A stretch of DNA of 64,000 nt. It comes from Candidatus Falkowbacteria bacterium GW2011_GWF2_43_32. GTDB lineage: Bacteria > Patescibacteriota > Patescibacteriia > Patescibacteriales > UBA12465. The stretch is taken from assembly GCA_000999715.1 (NCBI GenBank), contig LCGL01000001.1, forward strand, positions 131,139 through 195,138. The letters run 5' to 3'. The number at the start of each line of letters is the position of its first letter. The stretch's first letter is position 1. The position numbers were made by a program, and so were the translations under genes. The notes under the pieces are model-generated. The model searched no databases and was not told where the DNA came from. It saw only the letters and a list, made by a program, of their open reading frames with translations. Shown one piece after another: positions 176-30,225 of this stretch.

Positions 176-802
176 TTATTTTATCGCCTCCAATTTTTTG
201 ATTCGCGCTTCCAGGCTATCAATTTCCGCCTGCTGTTCTTTAATCGCTTCAATCAAAGGGGCGACCAAGTTGGCGTAATGTACCGATTTCGTATCGCCAG
301 CTTCGGAAACTAAAACCGGAAACACTTGTTCCACTTCCTGAGCGATTAAACCGATGCCGGCCTCGCCGTCCTTAATCCAATCAAAAGAAACGCCGCGTAA
401 TTGCAGGATCTTGTCCAGCGAACTGTCCAAAGTTTTGACGTTCTTTTTCAATTTTTCATCCGAAGCATAAACAAAAGCCGTCGCCGCCGCCGTGCCGTTG
501 ACGTGCAGGAGATAACCTGGACTGGTTGTACCGATGCCAACATCGCCGTATTCAACAACAAACCCTATGGCAGGCTGATTTTTGGCAACATAGAGACCAC
601 CACCAACTTCTCCCAAGCGCTGGACTCGCAAATCCTCGTTCAAATAACTGCCTGTAATCGCCGCCTCCGTTTTCCAAACTGCCAGACTAAAGACGGCAGT
701 CGTCAAAATAACGCCAATCACCAACCAAGGCGCACCGACTTTCACATTCTTGAGATTGTTCATAAGATTGTTCATAAAATTTAGATTATTATCTATGTTC
801 AT
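176..802 (-). CDS. Short tail-fibre-like protein with an N-terminal TM anchor, one GDVGIGTTSP unit and a C-terminal endosialidase-chaperone (peptidase S74 / PF13884-type) domain
   Basis: This is ORF 176-871. The hydrophobic segment is GAPWLVIGVILTTAVFSLAVW. The C-terminus reads SDEKLKKNV..LRGVSFDW..GLIAQEVEQVFP..YANLVAPLIEAIKEQQ followed by a coiled-coil tail, and it is paralogous to the C-terminus of 3355-7695. The track start at 871 lies inside the upstream terminator hairpin, so I prefer the ATG at 802; the ATG at 775 is also possible. Confidence 0.75.
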   Translation of the reverse strand: MNIDNNLNFMNNLMNNLKNVKVGAPWLVIGVILTTAVFSLAVWKTEAAITGSYLNEDLRVQRLGEVGGGLYVAKNQPAIGFVVEYGDVGIGTTSPGYLLHVNGTAAATAFVYASDEKLKKNVKTLDSSLDKILQLRGVSFDWIKDGEAGIGLIAQEVEQVFPVLVSEAGDTKSVHYANLVAPLIEAIKEQQAEIDSLEARIKKLEAIK

Positions 803-831
803 ATAATACCATATTTTGAAAAACCCGTAAA
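803..831 (-). promoter_or_regulatory. Candidate sigma70-type promoter (TTTACG-17 nt-TATTAT on the minus strand)
   Basis: Read on the minus strand, TTTACG is at 831-826 and TATTAT at 808-803, separated by a 17-nt spacer. If this promoter is used, the real start codon is the ATG at 775 rather than 802. Confidence 0.3.
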
Positions 832-865
832 TAAAAAGCCCCTCCTGACAAAAGTCAAGCGGGGC
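829..865 (-). terminator. Rho-independent terminator after the 882-2828 gene
   Basis: The minus strand reads GCCCCGCTTGAC-TTTT-GTCAGGAGGGGC, with 11 of 12 positions paired, followed by TTTTTATTT. Confidence 0.55.
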
Positions 866-881
866 CCTCAAATAAACACAA

Positions 882-2926: not shown

Positions 2927-2955
2927 AGTATAGTATATTTTTATATAAATGTCAA
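2927..2955 (-). promoter_or_regulatory. Near-consensus sigma70 promoter for the 882-2828 gene (TTGACA-17-TATACT)
   Basis: On the minus strand TTGACA is at 2955-2950 and TATACT at 2932-2927, with a 17-nt spacer. Confidence 0.5.
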
Positions 2956-3011
2956 TAATATAAGCTAAATCTTATTTAAGATTAGCTAAAATACGGCCAT
3001 AATATTAAGCC

Positions 3012-3353
3012 CTAACGCCGCGGTCTCAAGTTTTCCAGCAACTGCTCATATTCAGCATCGGTGAGTGTCGGCGTAGCGGTGGGCGACGGTTTCAAATTTT
3101 CCAATAACTGCTCATATTCGGTGTCGGAAAGCGTCGGCGTGGCGGTGGGCGACGGTTTCAAATTTTCCAATAACTGCTCATATTCGGCCGGAGACAATGT
3201 TGTGCCGCTATCCTCGCTCTTTTCTTCATTCAACCAAGGAACGATTTGTTCCAGCGGTTTGTCCTTCAAGCTCAACAACAAATAGGCGACCGCCAGCGTC
3301 ACCAAGATGGCTATGATGGAAATGATAATTCTTTTGGTTTTGATGTTTAACAT
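3012..3353 (-). CDS. Small membrane-anchored protein with tandem 22-aa repeats
   Basis: The protein is 113 aa with N-terminal TM segment IIISIIAILVTLAVAYLLLSL. It then carries 2.4 copies of EYEQLLENLKPSPTATPTL(S/T)D(T/A). Confidence 0.6.
   Translation of the reverse strand: MLNIKTKRIIISIIAILVTLAVAYLLLSLKDKPLEQIVPWLNEEKSEDSGTTLSPAEYEQLLENLKPSPTATPTLSDTEYEQLLENLKPSPTATPTLTDAEYEQLLENLRPRR
3031..3190. repeat. 66-bp tandem repeat, about 2.4 copies (units start at 3031, 3097 and 3163)
   Basis: The unit ttttccaataactgctcatattcggtgtcggaaagcgtcggcgtggcggtgggcgacggtttcaaa recurs head to tail with a few substitutions. It lies in-frame inside CDS 3012-3353. Confidence 0.9.
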
Positions 3354-3354
3354 A

Positions 3355-6300
3355 TTATTTGATTATTTCTAAAGCTCTGATTCTGGCTTCCAAATCATCA
3401 ATAGTTTTGGTTTTCGCTTCCAAGTCCTCAATCTTGGCTTGCTGTGCTTTGACGGCCTCAATCAAAGGCGCGACCAAGTTGGCATATTGCACGCCCTTGG
3501 CTCCGTCCTGACCGAAGACCAATTCCGGGAAAACTTTTTCCACCTCTTGCGCAATCAAACCGACACTTGGCGATCCGTCTTGTTTCCAATCGAAAGTAAC
3601 ACCGCGCAATTTCAAGATTTTTTCCAAAGAATTATCGATACTCGCGACATTTTTCTTCAAATTGCGATCGGAACTCCAAATGAAAGAGCTCGCTTTGACG
3701 TTGCCGTTAACTTCCAGTTTTTCGCTCGGCGCCGTCGTCCCGATGCCAACGTTCCCCGACGTCGGCAAAATTGTAATTCTGGCGGTTCCATCAAAATTTC
3801 CTGACTTAATATGAAAACGTTTATCAGTATCGGTTCTCAATCCCATCCACCAGTCATCCGTTCCGGCGGTCTGGAAATAGACTCCGCCGGCGTTCGTCGT
3901 AGCGCCTCTGTCAATTTCTATCCCGGCTCCGGTGGAACTGTCCAAATGCAAACCATACCCGACAAGATCACCGGCTACGGTTAGCGCTTGGTCGGGCGCG
4001 GTGGTGCCGATGCCGACATAACCCAAATTGTTAATCCTCATCATTTCCGTGGCATTACCGGTATTCCTGGAACCGAACGTTAAAGCGCTAGTTACCCCGG
4101 CATTTATAGCTACACTCTTGATAAATCCGCTGACACCGACGCCGCCGGTGGAGACGTCATTCGCGTAAAATTCAATGCCGCCATAATCATTAGCCACATC
4201 TATAGTGGTGTGCGTGTTCTCTATTCTAAGGTATGGGGCACTGGCTGAAGAGCCGCCATCTTTTGTAATCTGTAAAAGTTTCGCCGGCGCTGTCGTCCCA
4301 ATCCCCACATTCCAAGCCGTAGAACTGGCATAAAGATTGGAGCCGCTCAAACCCCAATAAGTGCCGGCCATACTATCAACATAAGCTTTCGTGGCGGCAT
4401 CGGTGTCAACAGTCGGTGTAGCCACATTACCGATTTTTCCGCTGCCGGCTTTGATGGTATAACCGGAGGCCACAGTCGCCACTTCCAATCCGGCAGTCGG
4501 TGCGGTTGTTCCAATTCCGAAATAACCGGAACTGTTAATAGTCATTCTGGTAGCCGCATTCACAACAAACTGCATTAAATCACCACTATTATTATACACA
4601 ATCCACCCTCTATCCGTGTCATCGCTATCGCCAAAATCCAATCTGGCGACAGACGATGTCCCGGAGGTAATTCTTGCAATCGTATTTCCTGTTCCCAAAA
4701 TATGTAATTGAACTTCAGGGGCTGTCGTGCCGATGCCGACGTTGCCGGCTTGTGTCCAAGTCAAAACATCTACGTCAGCTGCAGAAGTATTAACATGTCC
4801 TAGTGTTGCTGAATCTCCTGCCTTACTAGCAATAAATGCCATATTATTTTCAAGTCCTGCTTCAGAAGCATCATAGTGTCTAATTTCTAATCTTTTTTGT
4901 TGAGTTACTTCACCATTAATTCTTACTTTGGTAGTTTCTGCTGATTCTGTATTAATATCTAAATGTGCTTGTGGGCTTGTTATTCCTATACCCACCTTCC
5001 AAGCCGTGGAGCTGGCATAAAGATTGGAACCGCTTAAACCCCAAGGCTGAGAAGCGCTGGCCACGCTGTCGGCATAAGCTTTCGTGGCGGCATCGTCATC
5101 GGCAGTCGGTGTGGCGACATTACCGATTTTTCCGGCGCCGGCTTTGATGGTATAGCCGGAGACCGCAGTCGCTACTTCCAATCCGGCGGCCGGCGCGGTG
5201 GTGCCGATGCCGACCAAACCGGTTGACGTCAATCTCATTACTTCGGAATCCTGCGCTGCTCTAAAAGCCAAATATCCCATTTCTGCTACCGTGTTATTTG
5301 AAAACGTAATAATCGAACCATAAGGCGTGGTTGTGTCTTTTGTAATTACAAATTGTCTTACTGAAGAGGGGGCCACGCTACCAAGAGTTAAACTTATTGT
5401 TCCGCTGTCCGTGTTAGTCCCGGTTGAAACATGAAGTTTAGACGCCGGAGCGATAGTGCCGACGCCGACGTTGCCACCTAAAGGATTTAACAACAAGTCA
5501 TAAGCAATGGACGCCGTACCAAAATTCCTAGATTGGATATAAGAAGGATAAGGAGATCCGAGCGTTCCCATGACCATTCCGACATTACTTCCGTCGCCAA
5601 CTACTAAAGCACCCTGGGCTGCCGGAACAGTTAAGTCAGGCGTGGCTAAAGCCGCTTTTACTTCTAGAGCCCGACGCGGATTAGTCATTCCGATGCCGAC
5701 GTTGCCGCCAACTTGCTGCAAAATCAGATTATTATCACTAGTACCACCTAAGTCATAGGCCTGAAGACCAGTGTAAGTATCACCACTTGTCGCTCCAGTT
5801 AAAATTCTAAAACCAGAGCCAACCCCAGTAGCATAATCAGAGTTATAAAATCTTGCTAAATCGGATGAAGCGGAAGACGGTTGAACATGCAAAGCCGACG
5901 AAAGTGCTACAGTAGGATTGAGAGCTATCTTTCCTATCACTGTTAAGTTGGCAGAAGGCGCCGTCGTCCCGATTCCGACTTTTCCATTGGCTAAAATACG
6001 CATACGTTCTGTCAAAGCAACATCGGCTACAGCATTACGAGTTGAAAAAACTAAATCTCCTATCGTATTTGTTCCACCATTAGTAAGATGCCCCTTAATA
6101 GACGCCCAACCAAGCGAGCCTGCCGCTACCGATTGAACGTTACCGAATATTAATGCTCCACCGCTACCGGCGCTGGTAGTTGATGAATTTAGTGCTAACA
6201 TATCAGTCCGCACGCCGGCATCTGTCAGATTGGCCGTTAACTGACCGGCGCCATAAAGCTCAAGTTTTGATTTTGGATTCGTCGTCCCAATCCCCACATT

Positions 6301-7695
6301 CCAAGCCGTAGAACTGGCATAAAGGTTGGAACCGCTCAAACCCCAGTAACCGACCGTGGAACCAGAACCACCGGCAAGGGTAGCGACCAAATAACCTTTA
6401 TTGACAACGTCTTCATCCTGAGTGATGGTGGAGGTTCTCATCTTAATTAAATCACTGACATCTAGTTGCGCTAAAGGAGCGGTAGTACCGATGCCAACGT
6501 TGCCGGCATTAATAGTCATATAAGAAGATGCGGCCGTCCCCCATGATTGAATATTATTATTAGGATCTCTCTCCCACCACGTTTTAGTGTCAGTCATGGG
6601 AGTCGTAAAAGAACTGTCAACCGAAATAGCGTCATGAACTCTGGCGGTAGTCCACGACGTACCCGCCGCATCTCTAACCAACCAAATCATGTTTTTGACA
6701 AAATTGCTTGACTTACCCTGAAAAGTGGTTATTATTTGACTATTTCCTGCCGTTTCTCCCAATAATGTTGTTTCTAAAACATCTAATTTTGACCCCGGAG
6801 CGGTTATACCGATGCCTGTATTACCAGAAACTAGAGAAACAATATTACCATTGTCTCTTACCGCCCAAGCCCGATCAATTGATTGAACTTCTTCTACTGT
6901 CGGCACGCCGAACCAATTTGAGACACTAACACCGGCATTGTAATAATTTAAAAACCTAAGCTTAATATAGGCAACATCGGCCCCTAATCTGTAATTACTG
7001 CTGGCGGTATCGCTTGGATTGGTCCAATCATTAGCTGTTCCCGAGCCAAAAAGATAACCGGTTTTTCTAAACCAAGTGTTGGCGGTCAAATCTCCGTTCC
7101 AAAAATAATAATTAGCAGTGCCCACGCCGGCCGAATTATAACAATTGACTTCCGCTTTAGCACTATTATAACAATCAAATCCCAAATATCTTGTTCCCGT
7201 GGTGGCATTATCTGTCCGAATCCATAAACTCAGCCTATAGGTTTTTTCATTATCAACCGGTATAAAATTTGAATATATTTGAACATCGCCGGTGGTAGTT
7301 ATTTTTAAAACTTGAGCATATTCTCCGGTGGGTAACTGCATGGTTTCTACGGAATTACCGGCTTCACCGGTCCACTGATTCATATCTGCAAAATACGGAT
7401 CCGGCAATAAATTATCGGAAGCGGGCGACCAAGAATAGGCATTATAAATATTATCTCCGAATTTTATATTACCGCTGACATCTAAAGCGGTCGTCGGCTC
7501 AGTCGTCCCGATCCCCACATCTCCGTCGATGTTCCAAATTCCGTCACCGGGGAAAGTGGCACCGTTAGCAAAATCCGGGCCGGTCTGCGCTTGTGCCATT
7601 GTCAAACCGAAAAGAGCGACCAAGGCCGCGAGAGAAAAAATTAATATTTTTTTAGACATAAACGTATTGTTTAAGCTGTTGATTATCTTTTCCAA
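3355..7695 (-). CDS. Giant secreted tail-fibre-like fibre protein (1446 aa) with a C-terminal S74-type intramolecular chaperone domain
   Basis: The signal peptide is MSKKILIFSLAALVALFGLTMAQA, so the start is possibly at 7659. I count about 14 G-x-V-G-I-G-T-T-x-P units, plus internal duplications such as AGLEVAT..SGYTIKAG.GKIGNVATPT.D.DAATKAY.D..WGLSGSNLYASSTAW.VGIG. The last 105 aa (3358-3672) read SDRNLKKNV..LRGVTFDW..GLIAQEVEKVFPELV..YANLVAPLIEAVKAQQ followed by a coiled coil. Confidence 0.85.
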   Translation of the reverse strand: MEKIINSLNNTFMSKKILIFSLAALVALFGLTMAQAQTGPDFANGATFPGDGIWNIDGDVGIGTTEPTTALDVSGNIKFGDNIYNAYSWSPASDNLLPDPYFADMNQWTGEAGNSVETMQLPTGEYAQVLKITTTGDVQIYSNFIPVDNEKTYRLSLWIRTDNATTGTRYLGFDCYNSAKAEVNCYNSAGVGTANYYFWNGDLTANTWFRKTGYLFGSGTANDWTNPSDTASSNYRLGADVAYIKLRFLNYYNAGVSVSNWFGVPTVEEVQSIDRAWAVRDNGNIVSLVSGNTGIGITAPGSKLDVLETTLLGETAGNSQIITTFQGKSSNFVKNMIWLVRDAAGTSWTTARVHDAISVDSSFTTPMTDTKTWWERDPNNNIQSWGTAASSYMTINAGNVGIGTTAPLAQLDVSDLIKMRTSTITQDEDVVNKGYLVATLAGGSGSTVGYWGLSGSNLYASSTAWNVGIGTTNPKSKLELYGAGQLTANLTDAGVRTDMLALNSSTTSAGSGGALIFGNVQSVAAGSLGWASIKGHLTNGGTNTIGDLVFSTRNAVADVALTERMRILANGKVGIGTTAPSANLTVIGKIALNPTVALSSALHVQPSSASSDLARFYNSDYATGVGSGFRILTGATSGDTYTGLQAYDLGGTSDNNLILQQVGGNVGIGMTNPRRALEVKAALATPDLTVPAAQGALVVGDGSNVGMVMGTLGSPYPSYIQSRNFGTASIAYDLLLNPLGGNVGVGTIAPASKLHVSTGTNTDSGTISLTLGSVAPSSVRQFVITKDTTTPYGSIITFSNNTVAEMGYLAFRAAQDSEVMRLTSTGLVGIGTTAPAAGLEVATAVSGYTIKAGAGKIGNVATPTADDDAATKAYADSVASASQPWGLSGSNLYASSTAWKVGIGITSPQAHLDINTESAETTKVRINGEVTQQKRLEIRHYDASEAGLENNMAFIASKAGDSATLGHVNTSAADVDVLTWTQAGNVGIGTTAPEVQLHILGTGNTIARITSGTSSVARLDFGDSDDTDRGWIVYNNSGDLMQFVVNAATRMTINSSGYFGIGTTAPTAGLEVATVASGYTIKAGSGKIGNVATPTVDTDAATKAYVDSMAGTYWGLSGSNLYASSTAWNVGIGTTAPAKLLQITKDGGSSASAPYLRIENTHTTIDVANDYGGIEFYANDVSTGGVGVSGFIKSVAINAGVTSALTFGSRNTGNATEMMRINNLGYVGIGTTAPDQALTVAGDLVGYGLHLDSSTGAGIEIDRGATTNAGGVYFQTAGTDDWWMGLRTDTDKRFHIKSGNFDGTARITILPTSGNVGIGTTAPSEKLEVNGNVKASSFIWSSDRNLKKNVASIDNSLEKILKLRGVTFDWKQDGSPSVGLIAQEVEKVFPELVFGQDGAKGVQYANLVAPLIEAVKAQQAKIEDLEAKTKTIDDLEARIRALEIIK

Positions 7696-7700
7696 TTATA

Positions 7701-9266
7701 TCATTTTCTGTAATAGTAATCAAATAAAACATCGGCTAAAAAGGGCGAATGGAATTTATCCGGCCAAGCCGGAAAAACCGCTCGCAAAAAGAATTGATTG
7801 ATGGACGGCGTGACGAAATCTAAAGCGGTGCCGGCCGGCAATTCTTGCCAGTTTTGACCGTCGGTGGAAAAAGAAAGTTTTATCGTTTCCGCGCTGGCCG
7901 CGTCCAAATTCAAACGACTCTTGGCGATACCCTGAAGAGAAAATTGCGGCGCGCGCGCCAAAGGATTGAATTCCACTTGCGCCGGCGTGTTGTTTTTAAA
8001 ACCGCGGTCCACAAAAGCTTTCCATTCCGTTTGATCGTTATCTATTGTCTTGGCTAAGAGCACATATTTATCGGCCGCAGTTTCCGCCAAACGAAAAGCG
8101 ACCGCATCCACACTGCCCAAAGTCCGACTGAAAACCGCTTCCCCGACAATGTCTTCGCCGCCGTTCTGCCAAAGCTTGATTAGGCGCGGTCGCGACAGAG
8201 TCGTACTGAAAACATACCAGTTGACATCCTGAGCGCGAGTGGCTTTAATCGCTTCCGCCTGAAAACCGTTGGCCATAACGCGGATATCAAAAAATCGGCT
8301 GATATCGGTCAATCCCTCGGGCCGAACGCGATAGGCAATGCCCTTATAAGCTCCGTAAATAAGCAAGAAATCACTCTCTTCCCCACCGCCGCCGAACAAG
8401 CCGAAATACGATGAATTGATTTGATTATTAAGCGTGGCGCTTAACAAAGGCGTAAATTCCCGTCCGTCAAAATAAAAAACCAAACCTTGATAACCGCTAG
8501 TATTTTTTAAAGTGAAACCGACTACCCAGCGTTCCGCCAAAGAGAAAAAAGAAATGGCGCTGATTTCCCGGTCTTTGACTTCCGCCGGCAAAGCTAAGGG
8601 CCGATCATTATAATACAATTCGCCCCATCGCTGTTCCAGGCAATCGGCGCCCAAACAACGACGGTCAAAATAAGGACCTTTGAAATTATTGAAATTAAAA
8701 TCCGTCCAAGAATCCGCCTGGGCGGCCACCAGATCTTCGGCGGCCGTTTGCCAACTGTAATCCGGCGGAAAAAACAGCGCCGTCGCCGTTTTATCTTGGT
8801 AAAGCGTAGTTTTATTGAAATTCATGAAAGCTTCGGAAGAAAAAGTATCAAAAAAAGTGCCGAAAGTCAGTGTCGGATCAATAATATTGGGTAAGGAATC
8901 CGTTTTCGTCGTATCGGAGTCTCCCGTCAGCGAATGCTGGGGACCGATGGTCAAAGAAGAAACGGCCGGAATGACACCATCAGGTTCATCTTCCTTGGTA
9001 ACATTGACCGAGGTCGGCGGCACGACCGCTTCTGTCCCCTTCTCCGTCTCGTTCTCCGTCAGCACCGTCGCCGCCGGCTGTTCGGACGGCGCGGAGGCCG
9101 AGAAATTAAATCGGGAAATATAATAAGCCAAAAAATAAACGATTACGCCCAGGAACAATAAAATAAAAGTTCGGAAAATTGTCGTTCCCAGTTTTTTTCC
9201 GCTTGACAATTTTTTAGTTGGAGTTTTTGCCGACATAAAACAAAGAATTTTAATCGGAAGAGACAA
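7701..9266 (-). CDS. Membrane-anchored extracellular protein of unknown function
   Basis: The protein is 521 aa with one N-terminal TM segment, TIFRTFILLFLGVIVYFLAYYI. I recognised no motif. It sits between fibre genes on the same strand. Confidence 0.6.
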   Translation of the reverse strand: MSLPIKILCFMSAKTPTKKLSSGKKLGTTIFRTFILLFLGVIVYFLAYYISRFNFSASAPSEQPAATVLTENETEKGTEAVVPPTSVNVTKEDEPDGVIPAVSSLTIGPQHSLTGDSDTTKTDSLPNIIDPTLTFGTFFDTFSSEAFMNFNKTTLYQDKTATALFFPPDYSWQTAAEDLVAAQADSWTDFNFNNFKGPYFDRRCLGADCLEQRWGELYYNDRPLALPAEVKDREISAISFFSLAERWVVGFTLKNTSGYQGLVFYFDGREFTPLLSATLNNQINSSYFGLFGGGGEESDFLLIYGAYKGIAYRVRPEGLTDISRFFDIRVMANGFQAEAIKATRAQDVNWYVFSTTLSRPRLIKLWQNGGEDIVGEAVFSRTLGSVDAVAFRLAETAADKYVLLAKTIDNDQTEWKAFVDRGFKNNTPAQVEFNPLARAPQFSLQGIAKSRLNLDAASAETIKLSFSTDGQNWQELPAGTALDFVTPSINQFFLRAVFPAWPDKFHSPFLADVLFDYYYRK

Positions 9267-10796: not shown

Positions 10797-13700
10797 TTAT
10801 TTTACTTTCACGCCCTGCCGTGTTTGATCCTTGACTTTCAACGGCCACTTACGCCAATCAAAGCGTTTGCCAATCAAGCGATATGAAATTTCAGCCGGAC
10901 GATCGGAACGGAAAATCAATTTATTGTCTTGAATCAAATAATATACGGAAGCAAATTCGCCATAAGGAGTAATTAGAACGTCTACACTGTCTTTGCTAAA
11001 ATCAACTATTTGCCGCCAAACCCAGAGTTCGCCGCCCTCTTCCGTCTTGGCAAAATCAATCACCGCCTCAAATTCCGTCTTTACTTCGGCAGCTGTCGGC
11101 ACCGCAACTTTTCGGTTAATTTTAATCTTGCCGACATATTCTTCTTTCACGCCGCCGACGACGGAAGAAACGAAAGTCGCGTAATTAATGCCGTTAAGGA
11201 AATATAGAGGATCAATGGTGGTGGCGTTTAATTTTTCAACCGTTAAAGTACCCACTTGATCAATTGAATAACCGCTCATATCAATATATCCCTGCATATC
11301 TCCGCCGGCAAGAGGCAAATAGCCGCCTGTTTCATAAGTACCCGACGTACCGGCAATCAGTGTTTTAACTAATCCATAATTGGCTAAAGCATAATCATCT
11401 TCGGAAAGATAAGTGTCGGCATAGTTATGACCGGTGCCGGAAGATCCGGCCGGAGCGGCGACACCGGAATTGGTAATGGAAAAAATGTCATTCGGCGCGG
11501 TGGTACCGATGCCGAGTCTTCCGGATATATCAAGAAGCATGGCCGTTCCACTGCCAAAAGTATCATTATTAACATTAAATGAAATGCCTTTGCCGCTTCT
11601 ACCTTGCAAGGCCAGAGTACCGCTATAATACCCGACATATGACCGAGAATTAAACTCTATTTTAGGAGAACCGGTTATCCCGCCCCCATCATCAAGAGAC
11701 AATAAAGATGGAGGACTGACCGTTCCAATTCCGACATATCCGGAATTTAAAGTGGTCAAACCTTTTATCATGTCAATCTGAGTACCGGCCGGCAAACTGC
11801 CGACTAAGACTCCGGTGTCACCCTCCACAATACTAAACGAACCGCCAACTTCAATGCTTTGGTTCAAGATAGAATGGCTATAATATAAATAAGAGGAATT
11901 CACGTTGCCGACATATAAATCAATCGTCTTGGAGCTCTCGGTATCGGCGGTAATGATAGCTTTTACATCAAACGAGGTGCCATTATTTGAAACACTGCCG
12001 AGATGGTGAATATCTACAATCGGAGAACTGGTCATCGCCGGTTGTCTGGCGGTGAATTTATATATGCTGGTAACATCATTATCATTGGTAATACCCCTCA
12101 TATGGGTCATAAACGTTCCCTGATATGTATGGTACTGACCGGTTAAAGTTAGGGTTCCTATCTTATGCCACTTACTGTTAGTCGGATCTAATCTTGCAGA
12201 TTTCCAAGTAGTTATCATTCCCGTTGATTTGATTATTCCGTTGACCTCCAGTCTTTGACTGGGATTCGTCGTGCCGATGCCCACGTTGCCACCATTCGCA
12301 ATATAAGAAACAGCATTGGCAGTGGCAGCCAATTTTATATTATGATTATTTGCTCCATCATATAAACTTAACGTTCCGCCCCAATCTTGATTATAAACTT
12401 TAAACCGAACCCCTGATGAAGTATAATTTATGGCAAATAAATCAACGTCTTCACCCGTAAAATCTATTTGCAGCTTACCAAGAGTCGGTGCCGTCGTCCC
12501 GATACCCACGTTCCAAGCCGTAGAGCTGGCATAAAGATTGGAGCCGCTCAAGCCCCAATAGCCGACCGTGGAACCCGAGCCGCCGGCGATTAATGTTTTA
12601 ACCACTCCATAATTGGTCAGGGCGTAATCATCGGTAGAAAGATAAGTATCGGCATGGTTATGACCGGTGCCGGAAGATCCGGCCGGAGCGGCAACGCCGG
12701 AATCGGTAATGGAAAGAATATCGTTAGGCGCGGTGGTGCCGATGCCAACATACCCCAGATTATTAATCCTCATCATTTCTGTGGCATTGCCGGTATTTCT
12801 GGAACCGAATGTTAAAGCGCTGGTCACCCCGGCATTTATAGCTACACTCTTGATAAACCCACTGACACCGACGCCGCCAGCGGAGATATCATTCGCGTAA
12901 AATTCAATACCACCATAATCATTAGCCGTATCTATAGTGGTATGTGTATTTTCTATTCTAAGATACGGGGCGCTGACCGAAGAATCGCCGTCTCTTGCAA
13001 CCTGTAAAAGCTTTGCCGGAGCCGTCGTGCCGATGCCGACATTACCGTTATATCTAATCGTCATTGCTCTGGCTAATGTTCCATCGGAAGTAGGGGCTAC
13101 ATCGAAGAAAAGATCGGAACCAAAAGTATTTACGGAATTGCTATTTATCGTGCTTCCTATTCTTGCATAATTTATATTTGCATCATTGTTTTGATAATTT
13201 GATCCACGGAAAAGTATTCCGCCTCCATGCCCAACATAAGGCAGGGTATTTGCTTTTGCCGATATCGTCAATATATCATTGTATGTAGTGCGGTTTACTG
13301 TTTCATATCTTTGAATTTCTGTTTGCGTGTTTGGCACCGTCGTCCCAATCCCGACGTTGCCGCCAGAAGTAATTCTCATTTTTTCAGTTGTAGCACTTGA
13401 AATTCTCGTTCTAAAAGCTAGATCACCACTTGCACCATTTACATACCTTATAGCATCTATTTCCGCCATGGGCGTTGCGGCATCAGCACTAGTAACATCA
13501 AAAGCTAATCTCGCACCATCTGAATTAGTAGTTCCTTTGTGTCTAATGGTTGCTATTGTTTCAATCCCTGCGCCATTAGTCCCACCTGCAATCTCTATAG
13601 GTGTTGTCGGATCCGTCGTCCCGATTCCCACCTTCCAATCGGTGGAACTGGCATAAAGATTGGAGCCGTCCAAACCCCAGTAACCGACCGTTTCTCCGGA

Positions 13701-14342
13701 ACCGCCGGCGATAGCGGAACCAATGGCAGAATCCAAATAACCTTTATTAATAACATCTTCATCCTGAGTGATGGTGGAGGTTCTCATCTTAATTAAATCG
13801 CTGACATCTAACTTAGCGCCGGGAGTGGTCGTACCGATACCAACGTAACCGGTGTCGGGAATAACTAAAGCCGGATTGGAACTCTGAAAAATATAATTGG
13901 ATACACCGACCGAACTGCTTCCCAGCTTCAATGTCGCCCCTACACAAACCCCTCCGATTAACTCATAGCCCTGGGCGCAAGCCGAGCAAACCTCGGTACA
14001 TTGATTAAAAGTCGTACAATTATCGGGAACGGTAACATTCAATTTACAAGTAGTCGTTGAACATTTGGTGTAACCGGTATTACAACTTAAAACGCAATAG
14101 TTATATGAGCAACTAAAAGCATAGGTTCCGCCGGTCGGGTTAACCGGACAATCGGCGGTAGACTCCACTTCGCAAACAAGAGTATTTCCGTTACACCACG
14201 ACCTCCCTTCCGTCCAATTACAAAAGACACCGTCTTTCATGGTATTGGTTTCACAACCTCGCGTGGATGTATCAGCCTTAGCCGAAAAAGAAATCAAGAG
14301 TCCGAAAAATATTAAAATGGGAAGCAGTTTTGTATGCTTCAT
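10797..14342 (-). CDS. Giant secreted tail-fibre-like fibre protein (1181 aa) with an N-terminal Cys-rich module
   Basis: The signal peptide is MKHTKLLPILIFFGLLISFSAKA, followed by a Cys-rich N-terminal ~110 aa. I count about 9 GIGTT units. There are two copies of the cassette NDI(L/F)SIT.SGVAAPAGSSGTGHN.ADTYLS.DDYAL.NYG.VKTLIAG. Near the C-terminus is a tail-fibre-type LPLAGGDMQGYIDMSGYSI motif. Confidence 0.85.
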   Translation of the reverse strand: MKHTKLLPILIFFGLLISFSAKADTSTRGCETNTMKDGVFCNWTEGRSWCNGNTLVCEVESTADCPVNPTGGTYAFSCSYNYCVLSCNTGYTKCSTTTCKLNVTVPDNCTTFNQCTEVCSACAQGYELIGGVCVGATLKLGSSSVGVSNYIFQSSNPALVIPDTGYVGIGTTTPGAKLDVSDLIKMRTSTITQDEDVINKGYLDSAIGSAIAGGSGETVGYWGLDGSNLYASSTDWKVGIGTTDPTTPIEIAGGTNGAGIETIATIRHKGTTNSDGARLAFDVTSADAATPMAEIDAIRYVNGASGDLAFRTRISSATTEKMRITSGGNVGIGTTVPNTQTEIQRYETVNRTTYNDILTISAKANTLPYVGHGGGILFRGSNYQNNDANINYARIGSTINSNSVNTFGSDLFFDVAPTSDGTLARAMTIRYNGNVGIGTTAPAKLLQVARDGDSSVSAPYLRIENTHTTIDTANDYGGIEFYANDISAGGVGVSGFIKSVAINAGVTSALTFGSRNTGNATEMMRINNLGYVGIGTTAPNDILSITDSGVAAPAGSSGTGHNHADTYLSTDDYALTNYGVVKTLIAGGSGSTVGYWGLSGSNLYASSTAWNVGIGTTAPTLGKLQIDFTGEDVDLFAINYTSSGVRFKVYNQDWGGTLSLYDGANNHNIKLAATANAVSYIANGGNVGIGTTNPSQRLEVNGIIKSTGMITTWKSARLDPTNSKWHKIGTLTLTGQYHTYQGTFMTHMRGITNDNDVTSIYKFTARQPAMTSSPIVDIHHLGSVSNNGTSFDVKAIITADTESSKTIDLYVGNVNSSYLYYSHSILNQSIEVGGSFSIVEGDTGVLVGSLPAGTQIDMIKGLTTLNSGYVGIGTVSPPSLLSLDDGGGITGSPKIEFNSRSYVGYYSGTLALQGRSGKGISFNVNNDTFGSGTAMLLDISGRLGIGTTAPNDIFSITNSGVAAPAGSSGTGHNYADTYLSEDDYALANYGLVKTLIAGTSGTYETGGYLPLAGGDMQGYIDMSGYSIDQVGTLTVEKLNATTIDPLYFLNGINYATFVSSVVGGVKEEYVGKIKINRKVAVPTAAEVKTEFEAVIDFAKTEEGGELWVWRQIVDFSKDSVDVLITPYGEFASVYYLIQDNKLIFRSDRPAEISYRLIGKRFDWRKWPLKVKDQTRQGVKVK

Positions 14343-14364: not shown

Positions 14365-17199
14365 TTACTTACAACAGGCAAATTGATAGGTGAGACTACA
14401 ACGATTTAAACCGCCAAATCCATCGCCACTGGCTAGCTTGATCCAAACTGCGCCATAATCAGCGGTGGCCGAAGCACTCGTCCAGCCCTGACAATCGTTA
14501 GCGTTTGCCGTATACCCCGGAGGGCCATTGGAAATCCAGAAAGTTGTATCTAAAGGAATATCGGCGCCGTTGCCGCTGTTGATTGTGTATAGAATTTCAT
14601 CGGCCGTACAGACATGACTGCCGGACTCAACCGCATTACAAAGAGCGTCAACGCCGGTATAGCCGGATTGCGAACCGTTGTATTCCAATGGAGTAGAAGT
14701 AGAATAACTGGCAAAAGCGACCGGAGCCAAAGTAGAATTAACCCAACCCATAGTAGCCACATCCGTATCGGCGGTCGGTGCGGCCACGTTACCGATTTTA
14801 TAAGTCATCGCCGTAGAGGTACCGGCCAAAATCGCATAGTCGCTGGGAGGAACGACTTCCAACGAAGCGGTCGGTGCGGTGGTGCCGATGCCGACATTGC
14901 CATTATTCAACATCGTAGCAACAACTGTTCCCCCGTCCGTTCCACCAACCCATTGATGAGCTATGCCTGCCGCCGTACCCGCTCCTGTTGTAGATTTATA
15001 AGTTATTTTAGAATCAACAGCCGTTCCGCCTATTAAGAGGGGAGTAAATAAACTACTGGTATATGCGCTAAGCCAGTATCTATTTGATGCTCCTAAATTA
15101 CGGTTATTACTGATATCAGGAATAAGATTACCACTATATTGTATAGTTGAAGCACTAAAATATAAAGCTCCGCTATCTGTCCTGATTCTCGCGTAGCCAT
15201 TACTTGACTCCATCCAGAGATGTTTTCCTGTAACTGTCCCAGGTTTTAAATCTATTTGAAAATCACCATTTAATGCCAGTTCTTTTCCCGGCGCCGTCGT
15301 CCCGATGCCGACGTTGCCGCCAGATTGAAGAAACAATCTGGTACCAACCCCTGTTTCAACGAACTCAAAACTACCAGAAATTCCTCTAATATGCCACTGT
15401 TTATTACCAGAGTCAGTTTCAGTAAAACCAATATTAGGGTTTGCGTCACCAATTTCTAATTTAAACCCTGGCTCAGTCGTCCCAATCCCCACATTCCAAT
15501 CCGTAGAACTGGCATAAAGATTGGAGCCGTTCAAATTCCAATAGGCGGATTGAGACACCTCGTCCCCGTCATCAACATATTGCTTGGTGGCCACATCAGT
15601 ATCGGCTGTTGGAATAGCCACATTACCGATTTTATAAGTCATCGCCGTGGAGGTGCCGGCCAAAATCGCATAACCGCTGGCCGGGACGACTTCCAATCTG
15701 GCCGCCGGCGCCGTCGTCCCGATGCCGACGTCGCCTGCTATGTTAAAAGTTATCTTTGGTGTGTTATTATACATAAACTGATAACCAGCAACACCGCCCT
15801 CCGCCCCATTAATTGCAAGATACCCTGACGAAGAAGCCCCAGTTAAACCTCTGCCAACATCATAATACCTTGTACCACCAGATGTACCCATAATTCTTAA
15901 AGCAGGACCATCAACATTAATTTGCAATTTTGCCCCCGGTGCCGTCGTCCCAATTCCTACATTTTGAGCGGTTGTACTAGATATATAAATGGCTGGTGAT
16001 GTTATGCCCCCCAACCCCTGAGTGCCAATTCTTATTGGGGTTCCGGCAGTATTTCCAGCATAAGATGCTGTTATAAAATCAAAAGTAGAAACTGTTTGTC
16101 TAAAAAATGTTCTCTTAATATTCACATCTGCTAAATCAGAGCTATTATCTACTTCAAACGTAGTGTCTTTATAAACACCGCTTGCGACATCGGGATAAAA
16201 TCTCATTGAAGCATTTGTAAAAGTTCCACCCGTTACGCCCATCGCGAAACCCGGTCTTGAATAACCACTCGCAGTTGAACCTGCAACAAACTTCACATAA
16301 TCGTAAGTTCCAGTACTCCTCACCGCCCCAACCACATCTAATTTCTCCACCGGACTCGTCGTCCCAATCCCCACATTCCAATCCGTAGAACTGGCAAACA
16401 GATTGGAACCGCTCAAACCCCAATAGCCGACCGTGGAACCGGAGCCGCCGGCAATTAATGTTTTGGCCAATCCATAATTGACCAAGGCGTAATCATCGGT
16501 AGAAAGATAGGTAGAGGCATAATTATGTCCGGTGTCGGATGACCCGGCCGGAGCGGCCGTGCCGGAACCGGTAATGGAAAAAATGTCATTCGGTTCGGAA
16601 GTGCCGATACCGACATAACTGGTGGGCGGAATATATAGGGCGGGATAAGTGGCGCTCTGAATCACCGTGTTGCCGCTGGCCGGAACCGAATCATAACCAA
16701 GTTTCAAAGTCGGAGCGGTTCCTTCGCAGGCATTGGTACAAGCATTAAAAGTCTCCCATGATTCGCAAGATTGCGTGGCGATACAAGTATTATCGGTCGC
16801 GCAAAGCGTATAACCCGGATCACAACTGGCGCAAGCCCCGGCCGTGCAATTGGAATTGGTTAAAGTGGCGCAATGGTCGGCCGGATCATTGTAAGTACAA
16901 CTGCGAGTCGGATAAGTGCTGGCGGTACACAACAAATAATCGGCGATACAAGTACTGCAAGCGCCGCAAGAATCCAAAGTGGCGCAAGGAGAAACGGCCG
17001 TCAATTCATTGGTCGGACAATAGGCCAAATCCATACTGCGACAAGAGCCGGAACAATAATATAATTGACTCGGCTCACTGGCACAACCGACACCCTGCGG
17101 ACTGGCGGTCGGACAAGTAATTGTCGCCGACGCCGAAGAAGCGAAGATGAATCCGATAACGAAAAATATGGGAATTAGAAACAGGAATTTCTGTCTCAT
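14365..17199 (-). CDS. Secreted tail-fibre-like fibre protein (944 aa) with a Cys-rich N-terminus and a 6-Cys C-terminal globular domain
   Basis: A signal peptide is followed by a Cys-rich N-terminal ~130 aa. I count about 7 GIGTT units and one copy of the NDIFSITGSG..GHNYASTYLSTDDYAL cassette. The last 105 aa (14365-14682) carry GSHVC..EIL..NGPPGYTANANDC..FACCK. Confidence 0.85.
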   Translation of the reverse strand: MRQKFLFLIPIFFVIGFIFASSASATITCPTASPQGVGCASEPSQLYYCSGSCRSMDLAYCPTNELTAVSPCATLDSCGACSTCIADYLLCTASTYPTRSCTYNDPADHCATLTNSNCTAGACASCDPGYTLCATDNTCIATQSCESWETFNACTNACEGTAPTLKLGYDSVPASGNTVIQSATYPALYIPPTSYVGIGTSEPNDIFSITGSGTAAPAGSSDTGHNYASTYLSTDDYALVNYGLAKTLIAGGSGSTVGYWGLSGSNLFASSTDWNVGIGTTSPVEKLDVVGAVRSTGTYDYVKFVAGSTASGYSRPGFAMGVTGGTFTNASMRFYPDVASGVYKDTTFEVDNSSDLADVNIKRTFFRQTVSTFDFITASYAGNTAGTPIRIGTQGLGGITSPAIYISSTTAQNVGIGTTAPGAKLQINVDGPALRIMGTSGGTRYYDVGRGLTGASSSGYLAINGAEGGVAGYQFMYNNTPKITFNIAGDVGIGTTAPAARLEVVPASGYAILAGTSTAMTYKIGNVAIPTADTDVATKQYVDDGDEVSQSAYWNLNGSNLYASSTDWNVGIGTTEPGFKLEIGDANPNIGFTETDSGNKQWHIRGISGSFEFVETGVGTRLFLQSGGNVGIGTTAPGKELALNGDFQIDLKPGTVTGKHLWMESSNGYARIRTDSGALYFSASTIQYSGNLIPDISNNRNLGASNRYWLSAYTSSLFTPLLIGGTAVDSKITYKSTTGAGTAAGIAHQWVGGTDGGTVVATMLNNGNVGIGTTAPTASLEVVPPSDYAILAGTSTAMTYKIGNVAAPTADTDVATMGWVNSTLAPVAFASYSTSTPLEYNGSQSGYTGVDALCNAVESGSHVCTADEILYTINSGNGADIPLDTTFWISNGPPGYTANANDCQGWTSASATADYGAVWIKLASGDGFGGLNRCSLTYQFACCK

Positions 17200-26753: not shown

Positions 26754-26772
26754 AAGAATTCTCGGTTATTCT

Positions 26773-28530: not shown

Positions 28531-28565
28531 GATAGTGGTGAAAATTATCCTCAAATGCCGACTTT

Positions 28566-28958: not shown

Positions 28959-28962
28959 AATG

Positions 28963-29580: not shown

Positions 29581-29582
29581 AC

Positions 29583-30215: not shown

Positions 30216-30225
30216 GAAATTTTAA

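Follow-up and report, generated by a model that had tools for sequence, protein, structure and literature searches.

Two genes in the window (the whole 64,000-nt stretch of Candidatus Falkowbacteria DNA that was analysed) probably encode trimeric fibres that the cell makes for its own surface, with the same build as phage tail fibres and the MAT ("mosaic adhesive trimer") fibres of Bdellovibrio, because both end in the self-cleaving folding domain of phage tail fibres (Peptidase_S74, PF13884). What was established computationally is the identity of the domain and its fold, the conserved catalytic motif, the chromosomal context, the mosaic gene structure and purifying selection. The CPR (Patescibacteria) account for about a quarter of bacterial diversity and, to our knowledge, all of their cultivated members are obligate epibionts. 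In CPR host recognition, the only factors implicated so far are type IV pili and a few unnamed "adhesins" (PMC10633639, 10.1101/2024.11.25.624915, PMC11665869).

Domain content and predicted fold of the two C-termini

Both proteins had been described before as carrying S74 chaperone domains, and the Pfam scan placed PF13884 in each of them far above the gathering score of 22 (large fibre: 64.3 bits, E = 1.3e-17; mini protein: 59.8 bits, E = 3.3e-16), with model positions 1-57 of 58 covered in both regions. The domain makes up the last 105 aa of the large fibre and the last 95 aa of the mini protein, and a capping-loop motif stands immediately before it. For the large fibre, the span 3358-3672 on the minus strand of the window given in the preliminary description was exact, beginning with the Ser of 'SDRNLKK' and ending with the last codon (ORF-track aa 1342-1446). 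For the short protein the boundary at 463 was right and the one at 176 was not, as it takes in the stop codon, and the domain occupies 179-463(-) (ORF aa 137-231). The shared pattern quoted at that time (SDxxLKKNV..LRGV.FDW..GLIAQEVE.VFP.LV..YANLVAPLIEA.K.QQA.I and a heptad tail) was found as written. When the capping motif ahead of each domain is included, the two regions share 58% identity (BLASTP E = 5e-53), which by this alignment is a likeness far beyond chance, with one 10-aa indel in the C-terminal helix. Their DNA is 61% identical and holds no long identical tract; on the basis of this DNA identity, a recent duplication of the S74 ends or gene conversion between them was ruled out.

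The catalytic Ser-Lys pair was also checked, and the Ser with a Lys at +5 is present in both proteins. In the large fibre it lies in 'SDRNLK' (Ser at ORF-track aa 1342, which is aa 1330 in the annotated numbering starting from the ATG at 7659; Lys K1335), and in the mini protein in 'SDEKLK' (S105, D106, and K110 of the 199-aa protein). S, D, and K were invariant in 70 aligned mini homologues, the window copy included (alignment A1), S and K in 50 aligned larger homologues (alignment A2), and S[D/E]xxxK was found in 118 of the 120 best homologues. PDB sequence searches returned MyRF ICA 7dc3 (E = 3.4e-8), whose ADLRAK site aligns with the S-D-x-x-x-K motif, and the phage long-tail-fibre tip 6f45, whose 'SSDRRIKK' aligns with 'SSDRNLKK' of the large fibre.

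A chaperone fold was likewise recovered, as the AlphaFold models of both C-termini matched MyRF ICA 7dc3, endoNF 3gw6, GA-1 3gud, and T5 pb1 4uw8. In the fold search (Foldseek), the mini protein matched 7dc3 (E = 4.7e-6), then 3gw6 and 3gud, while the large-fibre C-terminus had Bdellovibrio Bd2133 and Bd3182 on top (E = 4e-7 to 1e-6), with 7dc3 (E = 4.8e-6), Bd1334, T4 gp34, T5 pb1 with its chaperone, and 3gw6 as lower matches. Target-normalised TM-scores to 7dc3 were 0.59-0.67 over both models (0.67 for the large-fibre S74 model). The models are monomers, with pLDDT (AF2) of 90-97 in the large-fibre S74 domain, and 93-98 in the mini S74 domain. Ahead of the chaperone domain, confidence is low across much of the modelled large-fibre fragment (pLDDT 46-66). 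Both are predicted to have the hairpins and the long C-terminal helix of the S74 fold class, which form the trimer core in solved domains; in the large fibre this helix is where the domain finishes.

Table 1. Features of the S74 fibre locus (window coordinates)
Feature	Position	Strand	Details
Mini S74 gene	176..775	-	199 aa + stop
Mini S74 domain	179..463	-	95 aa; PF13884 59.8 bits
Single capping-loop unit 'GDVGIGTTSPGYLLHVNG' and pre-cleavage strand, mini protein	464..547	-	
Variable ectodomain cassette, mini protein (aa 39-86)	518..661	-	dN/dS comparison with orthologue
N-terminal hydrophobic helix, mini protein (aa 15-43)	647..733	-	AF2 helix prediction
Promoter-like site, mini gene	803..831	-	9/12 positions with TG; consensus match
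Terminator hairpin then U-run, between FN3 gene and mini S74 gene	834..869	-	Folding energy
Small single-pass membrane protein with three 'LSPAEYEQLLENLKPSPTATPT' repeats	3012..3353	-	113 aa
Large S74 fibre gene	3355..7659	-	1434 aa as annotated; ORF track reaches 7695 (1446 aa)
Large-fibre S74 chaperone/autoprotease domain	3358..3672	-	105 aa; PF13884 64.3 bits
Last capping-loop unit 'GNVGIGTTAPSEKLEVNG' and strand to cleavage site, large fibre	3673..3756	-	14th of 14 motifs
Predicted signal peptide MSKKILIFSLAALVALFGLTMAQA, large fibre	7588..7659	-	Read directly from the sequence
Promoter-like site, large fibre gene	7695..7723	-	10/12 positions, extended -10 TG; consensus match only
Fibre paralogue without S74	10797..14342	-	1181 aa; Cys-rich N-terminal module, 9 capping motifs, unique tip
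Fibre paralogue without S74	14365..17199	-	944 aa; Cys-rich N-terminal module, 6 capping motifs
Fibre paralogue without S74	17261..19339	-	692 aa; 4 capping motifs, tip ...FACCQ
Two pseudopilin genes (N_methyl motif)	19890..20985	-	Directly upstream of fibre array, same strand
Type IV pilus machinery	25548..31305	-	PilM, two small ORFs, PilB (T2SSE), PilC (T2SSF)

A mosaic fibre array beside type IV pilus genes

The genes are arranged on one strand in the order type IV pilus genes, pseudopilins, three fibres without S74, the 1434-aa S74 fibre, and the mini S74 gene, beyond which LigA and then GatCA follow (Table 1). Cupredoxin-like genes are found inside the fibre array. The large fibre consists of 14 repeat modules (spacing 67-107 aa after the first) and contains a weak CBM_4_9-like region. 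The number of capping-loop motifs (V-G-x-G/N-x-x-x-P-x-x-x-L) per protein is 14, 9, 6, 4, and 1 in the five proteins, and in the PDB sequence search these motifs aligned to the chains of Bd2133, Bd1334, and Bd2439; for instance, 'GNVGIGTTAPSEKLEVNG' of the large fibre aligns to 'GNVGIGATAPTAKLEVAG' of Bd2133.

Within this genome the paralogues are split into two S74 members and three members with other tips, in line with what had been reported for the latter (1181, 944, and 692 aa): none has PF13884, and two share a Cys-containing tip, ending ...FACCK in the 944-aa protein and of the same type in the 692-aa protein. Sequence searches of the PDB with the two non-S74 tips gave no matches beyond the shaft motif. 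A diversity-generating retroelement acting on the Cys-containing tips was considered, and no reverse transcriptase was present among the ORFs scanned. DNA modules are common to the fibre genes at 80-90% identity, and the S74 fibre and the 1181-aa paralogue, for example, share 300 nt at 87% (3995-4294 vs. 12727-13026).

The S74 proteins and the three non-S74 paralogues would thus form a mosaic adhesin repertoire encoded beside type IV pilus genes. Both S74 proteins are expected at the cell surface with a role in adhesion, the most likely use of the fibres being contact with a host or partner cell, which makes the S74 proteins of this locus candidate host-attachment proteins. That they are self-cleaving surface fibres with another function (a structural coat, aggregation fibres, or phage decoys or shields) we consider rather unlikely. 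S74 fibres are also found in Anaerolineae, Gemmatimonadota, and Bacteroidota that are not known predators or symbionts, and the cupredoxin-like genes would fit such a function, but the nearest relatives are rich in predatory or host-dependent CPR, DPANN, Bdellovibrionales, and Omnitrophota, and both the shared shafts with varied tips and the hypervariable ectodomain of the mini protein are typical of receptor-binding proteins. A further point against it is the linkage to type IV pili, by which host attachment in Saccharibacteria is driven.

This linkage extends to other genomes, as CPR S74 genes often have type IV pilus genes as neighbours, along with a gene for a small repeat-containing membrane protein, which is a new point. 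Among 17 CPR loci, 7 had pilus genes no more than 10 kb from the S74 gene, vs. 2 among 34 non-CPR loci, figures that are partly confounded by small genome size. In this window the S74 genes lie 12-25 kb from the pilus genes and are not adjacent to them. Eight other CPR loci encode proteins built like the 113-aa membrane protein (Table 1) immediately upstream of their S74 genes; the 113-aa protein itself has a marginal repressor match in PHROGs (2.5e-4). BLAST among these S74-adjacent proteins yielded weak matches at permissive settings only, and their relatedness rests mainly on shared build and position.

By homology, both S74 proteins would trimerise and cleave themselves. Export would rely on the N-terminal signal peptide in the large fibre and on the N-terminal hydrophobic anchor helix in the mini protein. 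Outside the membrane, three S74 domains would then associate via their long heptad helices and interleaved hairpins, and this association would set the folding register of the upstream beta-structured fibre. Each module of that fibre is capped by a loop with the motif 'GNVGIGTTxPxxxLxV', and the 1434-aa protein has 14 of these, the 199-aa protein one. In the native trimer, the Lys of S-D-x-x-x-K would activate the Ser, which would then cut the bond just before itself and release the chaperone fragment (105 aa in the large, 95 aa in the mini protein). The mature large fibre would be long and end in ...SSFIWS, with the unit at 3673..3756 as its C-terminal end, and the mature mini protein would form a mini-trimer close to the membrane, its ectodomain having about 60 residues and ending in ...TAFVYA. 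An ectodomain of this size is very short for an adhesin, which counts against our explanation.

It is improbable, though a coiled-coil tail alone could hold the trimer and cleavage would leave the mini protein only about 60 extracellular residues, that S74 acts here as a permanent trimerisation tag, uncleaved and kept on the mature protein. Oligomerisation alone would not require the Ser, Asp, and Lys that are invariant in the 70 mini homologues and that recur as a motif in nearly all of the best 120 (118/120). Furthermore, all S74 proteins tested so far self-cleave, among them the cell-encoded Bd3182, for which cleavage at the SDxxxK Ser was shown experimentally (PMC10769870).

If the two genes do encode surface fibres as proposed, the locus represents a CPR genome with a phage-tail-fibre-like adhesin repertoire of the kind that acts in Bdellovibrio prey handling, featuring swappable tips, a putatively self-cleaving folding domain, and physical linkage to pilus genes. 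It would also provide concrete candidate genes, together with Ser-to-Ala and Lys-to-Ala point mutants, for host-range determinants in CPR and possibly DPANN.

The 199-aa S74 protein

The reading of the short protein as an anchor, one repeat unit, and a chaperone was borne out: the protein consists of a hydrophobic N-terminal helix (a membrane anchor or else a long signal peptide), a single capping-loop unit, and the S74 domain. Its length, read earlier as 231 or ~208 aa, was corrected. The true product is likely the 199-aa protein starting with MNNLMNNLKNV (ATG at 775), because the 231-aa reading begins at a TTG just 5' of the terminator hairpin 834-869 and crosses it, and the ~208-aa reading would start at an ATG that directly adjoins the -10 box of the promoter-like site. 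The hairpin has a folding energy of -23.8 kcal/mol (z = -6.1), and none of 200 shuffled sequences folded as well. The 199-aa start is used in the public annotation and conserved in an orthologue (P0002/L170), and the protein is identical to a public one (P0001, 'hypothetical protein UV95_C0001G0139, Candidatus Falkowbacteria').

In comparison with this orthologue, the S74 part of the gene has 9 synonymous and 0 non-synonymous changes (dN = 0, dS = 0.16), while the 48 codons of the ectodomain (aa 39-86) reach dN = 0.49 and dS = 1.28. Outside this cassette dS is 0.16-0.23, and one residue differs in aa 1-38, which include most of the hydrophobic helix. Judging from these substitutions, from its own promoter-like site and terminator, and from its many homologues of similar size, the mini S74 gene is functional and under purifying selection. 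Its middle 48 codons look exchanged between close relatives. With respect to size, 44 of the 120 best homologues have 184-205 aa, and proteins of 187-205 aa, each bearing its own signal peptide, make up the commonest size class in this set, coming from many CPR lineages. From these homologues, the mini S74 proteins form a large, conserved class in CPR and DPANN, which is likewise a new point.

An alternative, in which the 199-aa gene would be what truncation left of a longer fibre gene, or a silent cassette supplying other fibre genes with a chaperone end by recombination, would be consistent with its position at the end of a mosaic, recombining array, its single repeat unit, and the apparent exchange of its middle codons. 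It is nonetheless very unlikely, since the gene comes with a promoter-like site of its own and a terminator upstream, its start is conserved, its S74 part has accumulated synonymous changes only, and its size class is the commonest among the best 120 homologues across many CPR lineages. The role of recombination donor for the chaperone end, which had been among the suggestions for the short gene, found no support, as the two S74 ends have only 61% DNA identity with no long identical tract and three of the four large fibres have no S74 domain.

Beyond the trimeric surface fibre that we favour for both genes, a more specific reading of the mini class can be put forward tentatively, namely that these proteins are a distinct conserved surface component of CPR and DPANN, consisting of membrane-anchored trimers with an exchangeable ectodomain of ~50 residues that work with the pilus in recognising the host. 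It is conceivable, at a similarly low level of confidence, that the mini trimer is folded and then unmasked by S74 self-cleavage, and we would regard just as cautiously the possibility that the mini gene forms a unit with the small repeat-containing membrane protein, often inside type IV pilus operons. If true, the mini trimer could serve, e.g., as a close-range docking point after pilus retraction, or as a base for other fibres.

Chromosomal setting and comparison with known systems

Phage origin was assessed with Pfam on 40 window proteins, and ten of these, located in or beside the fibre array, were also compared with PHROGs; 10 kb beyond the window start were included. The proteins had been regarded as cellular, and their neighbours agree with this, as they are flanked by ThrRS, RecG, YbeY, LigA, GatCA, and type IV pilus genes, with phage genes absent. 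The window also encodes FemAB, PilB, PilC, PilM, pseudopilins, RadA, and MetK, and LigA, GatC, GatA, and DsbA lie just beyond its start. No capsid, portal, terminase, tail-tube, baseplate, or integrase gene was detected in the 64 kb window and the 10 kb beyond its start. Tail-PHROG matches were confined to the fibres (the large one matching PHROGs 9942, 2.6e-55, and 18345) and the adjacent FN3 protein (weak, 2.4e-7). The array has the GC content of the genome around it, and a related 895-kb chromosome (L009) carries it in synteny, with an S74 fibre of only 546 aa.

Prophage origin was rejected after these domain scans. The idea that these are phage tail-fibre genes (prophage cargo or a remnant, and not the cell's own surface) is highly improbable, despite fibre bodies and S74 ends that match many tail-fibre PHROG families, 976 matching GenBank phage records (all < 60% identity), and IMG/VR viral-contig copies of S74 up to 61% identical: no virion or integrase genes accompany them, housekeeping and pilus genes surround them on the same strand, all five proteins have N-terminal signal peptides or anchors that virion proteins do not need, and both GC content and synteny tie the array to the chromosome. 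The S74 module itself may be of recent phage origin, because the viral-contig copies are equally similar.

The window proteins resemble the phage chaperones (K1F endosialidase 3GW6, T5 pb1 4UW8, and GA-1 neck appendage 3GUD) in PF13884 (MEROPS S74), the Ser-Lys motif, the C-terminal position after a fibre region, and the predicted fold. In contrast to these, they are encoded in a chromosome without virion genes, carry secretion signals, and stay below 60% identity to GenBank phages. The eukaryotic MyRF ICA (7DC3) is the best single-domain match in sequence and structure, the upstream capping loop included. In MyRF the anchor lies C-terminal to the domain and cleavage frees the N-terminal trimer, whereas in the window proteins the anchor or signal is N-terminal and cleavage would thus free the chaperone fragment.

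Close homologues already have automatic names at NCBI ('tail fiber domain-containing protein' and 'cell wall surface anchor family protein') and come from MAGs of Parcubacteria, Falkowbacteria, Paceibacterota, Jorgensenbacteria, Azambacteria, and Nanoarchaeia. S74 proteins are also encoded in MAGs of uncultured Saccharibacteria (L012, L030). One source calls a homologue a trimeric autotransporter adhesin, and this name was rejected, as no Pfam domain of the YadA-type anchor, head, or stalk was present in the five proteins. The literature searched for CPR and DPANN together with S74, PF13884, or tail fibres contained no discussion of such proteins.

The closest system is that of the Bdellovibrio MAT fibres, in which S74 on cell-encoded fibres and their surface location were shown experimentally (Caulton 2024, PMC10769870). 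Cell-encoded S74 fibres have thus been known since 2024, and the domain on cellular proteins is less new than the preliminary description implied. Full MAT family membership was ruled out, because no window ORF (E ≤ 10) and no other S74 ORF of the CPR loci matched a profile of the conserved, beta-rich MAT N-terminal anchor domain (~130 aa, next to the signal peptide). The 20 S74 proteins behind this profile included L037 and L047 of B. bacteriovorus, and it did recover 25 non-CPR proteins. The absence of the anchor domain counts against our explanation. In place of this domain, the N-termini of the window proteins are Cys-rich or plain. A separate N-terminal module, 'AWTEPxxxPPxGNVxAPLN', occurs in many other CPR fibres but is missing from those of the window, since its profile matches them by the capping-loop part only. 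The organisms also differ, i.e., an ultrasmall CPR bacterium vs. a proteobacterial predator, as do the genes, which here stand in one array beside pilus genes and include a 199-aa mini form with no reported Bdellovibrio counterpart.

On the other hand, the MAT fibres are the best structural matches to the large-fibre C-terminus, and those of the S74 subgroup (e.g., Bd3182) are likewise cell-encoded, with a signal peptide and a C-terminal S74 domain with SDxxxK. Both systems also have a long shaft with a common capping loop, known from solved trimeric MAT fibres ('GNVGIGATAPTAKLEV' in Bd2133 vs. 'GNVGIGTTAPSEKLEV' in the window), and both combine S74 and non-S74 members with swapped tips in one genome, with mosaic exchange of parts. 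The window proteins would extend the MAT concept to cells whose envelope and anchoring module are different, and the very small S74 protein among them could be a minimal system for chaperone-assisted trimer folding.

Peptidase_S74 domains of the large fibre and the mini protein

A common pattern had been described preliminarily at the C-termini of two proteins, the large fibre (1434 aa) and the mini protein (199 aa), and assigned to the intramolecular chaperone domain Peptidase_S74 (PF13884). It was located exactly (see table), both regions matched the PF13884 profile ('chaperone of endosialidase', model positions 1-57/58) with 64.3 bits (large fibre) and 59.8 bits (mini protein) against a gathering score of 22, and the C-terminal regions, compared together with the unit 'G(N/D)VGIGTT.P...L.VNG' (the preceding capping unit), were 58% identical (BLASTP E = 5e-53; 61% identity in DNA), so the shared pattern is real and far beyond chance. 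A single 10-residue indel separates the two S74 regions, in the C-terminal helix. The catalytic Ser and Lys were found in both proteins within S-D-x-x-x-K at the start of the domain: no substitution of S105, D106, or K110 occurs among 70 aligned mini homologues, 50 larger homologues keep S and K throughout with D at least 90% conserved, and S[D/E]xxxK is present in 118 of the 120 best homologues.

Sequence searches of the PDB retrieved the MyRF ICA domain 7dc3 (3.4e-8) and the phage long-tail-fibre tip 6f45 (4.7e-7), whose 'SSDRRIKK' lines up with 'SSDRNLKK' of the window. The AlphaFold model of the mini protein (mean pLDDT 82; 93-98 over the S74 part) comprises an N-terminal helix (aa 15-43), a few short strands and a chaperone fold with a terminal 32-residue helix; its top PDB fold matches were 7dc3, the endosialidase chaperone 3gw6, and the GA-1 chaperone 3gud. 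For the large fibre, the last 331 residues were modelled (pLDDT 90-97 over S74 and low before it), and the best matches of this model were the Bdellovibrio fibres Bd2133 and Bd3182, followed by 7dc3 (target-normalised TM-score 0.67), Bd1334, T4 gp34, 4uw8 (T5 pb1 with its chaperone), and 3gw6. The heptad-like tail of the pattern corresponds to the long terminal helix, which lies outside the 58-position Pfam model yet is part of the S74 domain and forms the trimer core in solved structures. Both regions are almost certainly chaperone domains of the PF13884 type.

In the public annotation, the large fibre starts at the ATG at 7659 (MSKKILIF) and the mini protein at the ATG at 775 (MNNLMNNLKNV). 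The latter has an identical entry, named 'hypothetical protein', in Candidatus Falkowbacteria bacterium GW2011_GWF2_43, and the window lies on contig DNKM01000006.1 of NCBI assembly GCA_003489845.1; the source is accordingly a member of the CPR/Patescibacteria. The 231-codon reading of the mini gene opens with a TTG a little 5' of a strong hairpin, which it traverses, a promoter-like site abuts the ATG of a ~208-aa reading, and the start MNNLMNNLKNV is kept in an 84%-identical orthologue, all of which favours the shorter 199-aa model. Judged from these signals, the mini gene looks like a transcription unit of its own; promoter-like sites (consensus matches only) precede each large fibre gene too.

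Coordinates of features in the window and in loci beyond it (L-numbers)
Feature	Sequence	Position	Strand	Remarks
ORF with mini protein	window	176-871	-	231 codons; 199-aa model 176-775
S74 end of mini protein	window	179-463	-	span matching 3358-3672; 95 aa
Promoter-like site, mini gene	window	831-803		extended -10
Hairpin	window	834-869		-23.8 kcal/mol, z = -6.1; followed by U-run; directly past stop of upstream FN3 gene
FN3 and PQQ-like-domain surface protein	window	882-2828	-
Small membrane protein	window	3012-3353	-	113 aa; three copies of 'LSPAEYEQLLENLKPSPTATPT'
66-nt tandem DNA repeat	window	3021-3152		encodes the repeats of the 113-aa protein
ORF with large fibre	window	3355-7695	-	1446 codons; 1434-aa model 3355-7659
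S74 end of large fibre	window	3358-3672	-	Ser of 'SDRNLKK' through last codon; 105 aa
300-nt block, two copies	window	3995-4294; 12727-13026		87% identity
Cupredoxin-like genes	window	9368-10045; 10035-10733	-	80% identical over 3' ends
Non-S74 fibre, 1181 aa	window	10797-14342	-	Cys-rich N-terminal module
Non-S74 fibre, 944 aa	window	14365-17199	-	Cys-rich N-terminal module; Cys-containing tip ...FACCK
Non-S74 fibre, 692 aa	window	17261-19339	-	Cys-containing C-terminal tip ...FACCQ
tRNA-Ser	window	44161-44252
TraG/VirB4-like P-loop ATPase	window	49528-51426	-
Vgb_lyase-like surface protein	L167	10632-11804		390-aa gene just past window start
Syntenic fibre array	L009 (OW818634.1)	485-10381		related 895-kb chromosome
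Small membrane proteins	L003; L005; L007; L015	9653-9946; 9672-9980; 9236-9529; 9339-9557		immediately upstream of S74 gene
Small membrane proteins	L019; L051; L172; L173	7864-8226; 8454-8738; 9686-9988; 9674-9952		immediately upstream of S74 gene

Fibre family, gene array, and linkage to pili

Copies of the capping-loop motif 'G-x-V-G-I-G-T-T-x-P-x-x-x-L-x-V' number 14 in the 1434-aa fibre, nine, six, and four in those of 1181, 944, and 692 aa, and one in the mini protein, and these loops align residue for residue with those of solved Bdellovibrio fibres. As proposed earlier, the three other paralogues lack S74 and carry different tips, one type being common to the 944- and 692-aa fibres and the third paralogue having a unique 240-residue end; neither type had a sequence match in the PDB. 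The fibre genes are mosaic in DNA: besides the 300-nt block, they share a 261-nt block that occurs four times (three copies being 62-85% identical to the reference copy) and a 103-nt block that occurs eight times. The array of L009 includes fibres of 1306 and 576 aa with the same Cys-rich N-termini and an S74 fibre of 546 aa (vs. 1434 aa in the window), with LigA next, so module number varies between relatives and fibre length changes through module gain or loss.

The genes form a single minus-strand array read from 31 kb to 0.2 kb: PilM, two small ORFs, PilB, PilC, FemAB, YbeY, two surface-type ORFs, two pseudopilins, the fibres of 692, 944, and 1181 aa, two cupredoxin-like proteins (genes in tandem), a 521-aa protein, the 1434-aa S74 fibre, the 113-aa membrane protein, a 648-aa FN3/beta-propeller protein, and the 199-aa S74 protein. 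Past the window start follow a beta-propeller protein, LigA, GatC, GatA, and DsbA, and the window also encodes ThrRS, RecG, RadA, YbeY, a FemAB-family enzyme, MetK, AdoHcy hydrolase, and three tRNAs. Domain scans of 40 window proteins (Pfam) and of the 10 kb past the window start turned up no gene for a capsid, portal, terminase, tail, or integrase; in a PHROG scan of ten proteins in and beside the fibre array, phage tail families matched the fibres themselves and, weakly, the FN3 protein (2.4e-7), the sole other match being that of the 113-aa protein to a repressor (marginal, 2.5e-4). With housekeeping and pilus neighbours, no phage structural or integrase genes, and an array GC content equal to that of the rest of the window, the S74 proteins are cellular, as the preliminary description had held.

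The mini gene is flanked by two beta-propeller-type surface proteins; a beta-propeller minor pilin, PilX2, has been proposed as a pilus adhesin in Saccharibacteria (10.1101/2024.11.25.624915). Elsewhere in the window, GC content falls from ~0.46 to 0.33-0.36 (~38000-44000) and 0.37-0.39 (~60000-64000); the former stretch, which includes HD-domain and PEP-utilising-domain proteins and whose end adjoins the tRNA-Ser, may be an acquired island. A type IV secretion system is reported to be widespread among Patescibacteria, and the TraG/VirB4-like ATPase may belong to it.

S74 genes adjoin pilus genes in several CPR loci. L005, L019, and L051 have in common a surface protein, a 94-120-aa small membrane protein, an S74 protein (204-697 aa), zero to two genes, and then PilB, PilC, and pilins; the order is pilin, pilin, PilD, 92-aa protein, 193-aa S74 protein in L173, and PilB, PilC, pilins, LigA, GatCA, 186-aa protein, 198-aa S74 protein in L174. 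Among loci of at least 12 kb, 7/17 CPR vs. 2/34 non-CPR loci had pilus genes no more than 10 kb from the S74 gene (Fisher p = 0.004); the sample is small, and genome size is a partial confounder. In eight CPR loci, the gene directly 5' of the S74 gene encodes a single-pass protein of 72-120 aa; most of these proteins carry two or three copies of an 'LTxEQxxxLxxL'-type repeat (also written 'L(T/S)xE(Q/E)xxxLxxL'; less clear in L015 and L019), and the 113-aa protein of the window is built alike. They had no significant Pfam match (the window copy only marginal, sub-threshold ones) and weak mutual BLAST similarity, and may be partners of the S74 proteins.

Relatives and the mini size class

A word-indexed search returned 813 homologues of the mini protein (E < 1e-5) and 2833 of the large fibre C-terminus (E < 1e-10). 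Those with a name came mostly from CPR (Parcubacteria, Paceibacterota, Falkowbacteria, Jorgensenbacteria, Azambacteria, Portnoybacteria, Peribacteria) and in some cases from DPANN archaea, the name usually being the automatic 'tail fiber domain-containing protein'. At least 520 stretches in a scan of species-level genomes encode relatives, and CPR, DPANN, Bdellovibrionales/Oligoflexia, Omnitrophota, and Planctomycetes are strongly represented among the best 80. S74 domains just as similar occur on viral contigs (up to 61% identical; GenBank phage copies < 60%), so the module is shared between phages and cells. Close relatives (53-55% identity), some of them short (139-229 aa), were also seen in MAGs of DPANN and other archaea (L014, L041, L045, L075, from Woesearchaeota, Nanoarchaeota, and Methanosarcinales; also P0019).

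The mini size is a class and not an accident, 44 of the 120 best homologues having 184-205 aa and their own N-terminal signal or anchor. In a Nei-Gojobori analysis against the orthologue in L170, dN and dS were 0.011 and 0.22 for aa 1-38, 0.49 and 1.28 for aa 39-86, 0.026 and 0.23 for aa 87-104, and 0 and 0.16 for the S74 part (aa 105-199). In this pair the chaperone domain is under strict purifying selection, and the pattern as a whole argues against a dead remnant. The 48-codon ectodomain is ~6x more diverged than its flanks, silent sites included, which looks like cassette exchange; the comparison, being of one pair, is suggestive only, and it hints that specificity resides in the short mature ectodomain.

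Proposed mechanism and comparison with Bdellovibrio fibres

In the account that we infer (trimerisation, cleavage, localisation, and ligand alike), chains would be exported via the Sec pathway, three chaperone domains would trimerise and template the folding of the upstream shaft, and the Ser-Lys dyad would cut directly before the Ser, releasing fragments of ~11.6 and ~10.6 kDa. Mature fibres and an anchored mini-trimer would remain on the surface and, together with the pilus, mediate contact or adhesion. We consider this account, surface adhesion included, probable. The finding is of value chiefly for the testable candidates that it offers for host recognition by CPR.

S74 domains on cellular fibres are already known from the mosaic adhesive trimer (MAT) family of B. 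bacteriovorus, which comprises 21 cell-encoded trimeric fibres sited on the predator surface, 13 ending in S74 with SDxxxK and eight in other tips; self-cleavage was demonstrated for Bd3182 and is abolished by S782A (Caulton et al. 2024, PMC10769870). The MAT-like proteins listed there for other lifestyles belong to Oligoflexia, the PVC group, Alphaproteobacteria, the FCB group, and Omnitrophica, with no CPR (PMC10769870), and no mention of S74 or tail-fibre-like proteins in CPR/DPANN was found in the literature searched.

The window set resembles MAT fibres in its shaft motif, its split into S74 and non-S74 members, and its mosaicism, but is without the conserved MAT N-terminal domain, a defining feature, which rules out full membership. 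A profile of that domain, built from 20 proteins (two from B. bacteriovorus), recovered 25 non-CPR proteins, yet matched neither any window ORF, with the threshold relaxed to E <= 10, nor any other S74 ORF identified in the CPR loci. Many CPR fibres begin instead with a signal peptide and 'AWTEPxxxPPxGNVxAPLN' (28 of the 120 best mini homologues; fuller form 'AWTEPxxxPPxGNVxAPLNV'), a CPR-specific module also present in L007, L012, L019, L022, L025, L027, L051, and L069, that sits on S74 and non-S74 fibre-like proteins alike and may play in CPR the part of the MAT anchor domain. The window proteins have neither module. Both the observation and the interpretation of the preliminary description hold, in that these are cellular S74 proteins with the canonical domain and motif. 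The phenomenon, cell-encoded S74 fibres, is of a known kind, and what is new is the lineage (CPR), the different anchor, the conserved mini form, and the previously unremarked linkage to pilus genes. Given the shared shaft, split, and mosaicism without either N-terminal module, we class the window set with MAT fibres in the way it works, but as a variant that is anchored differently.
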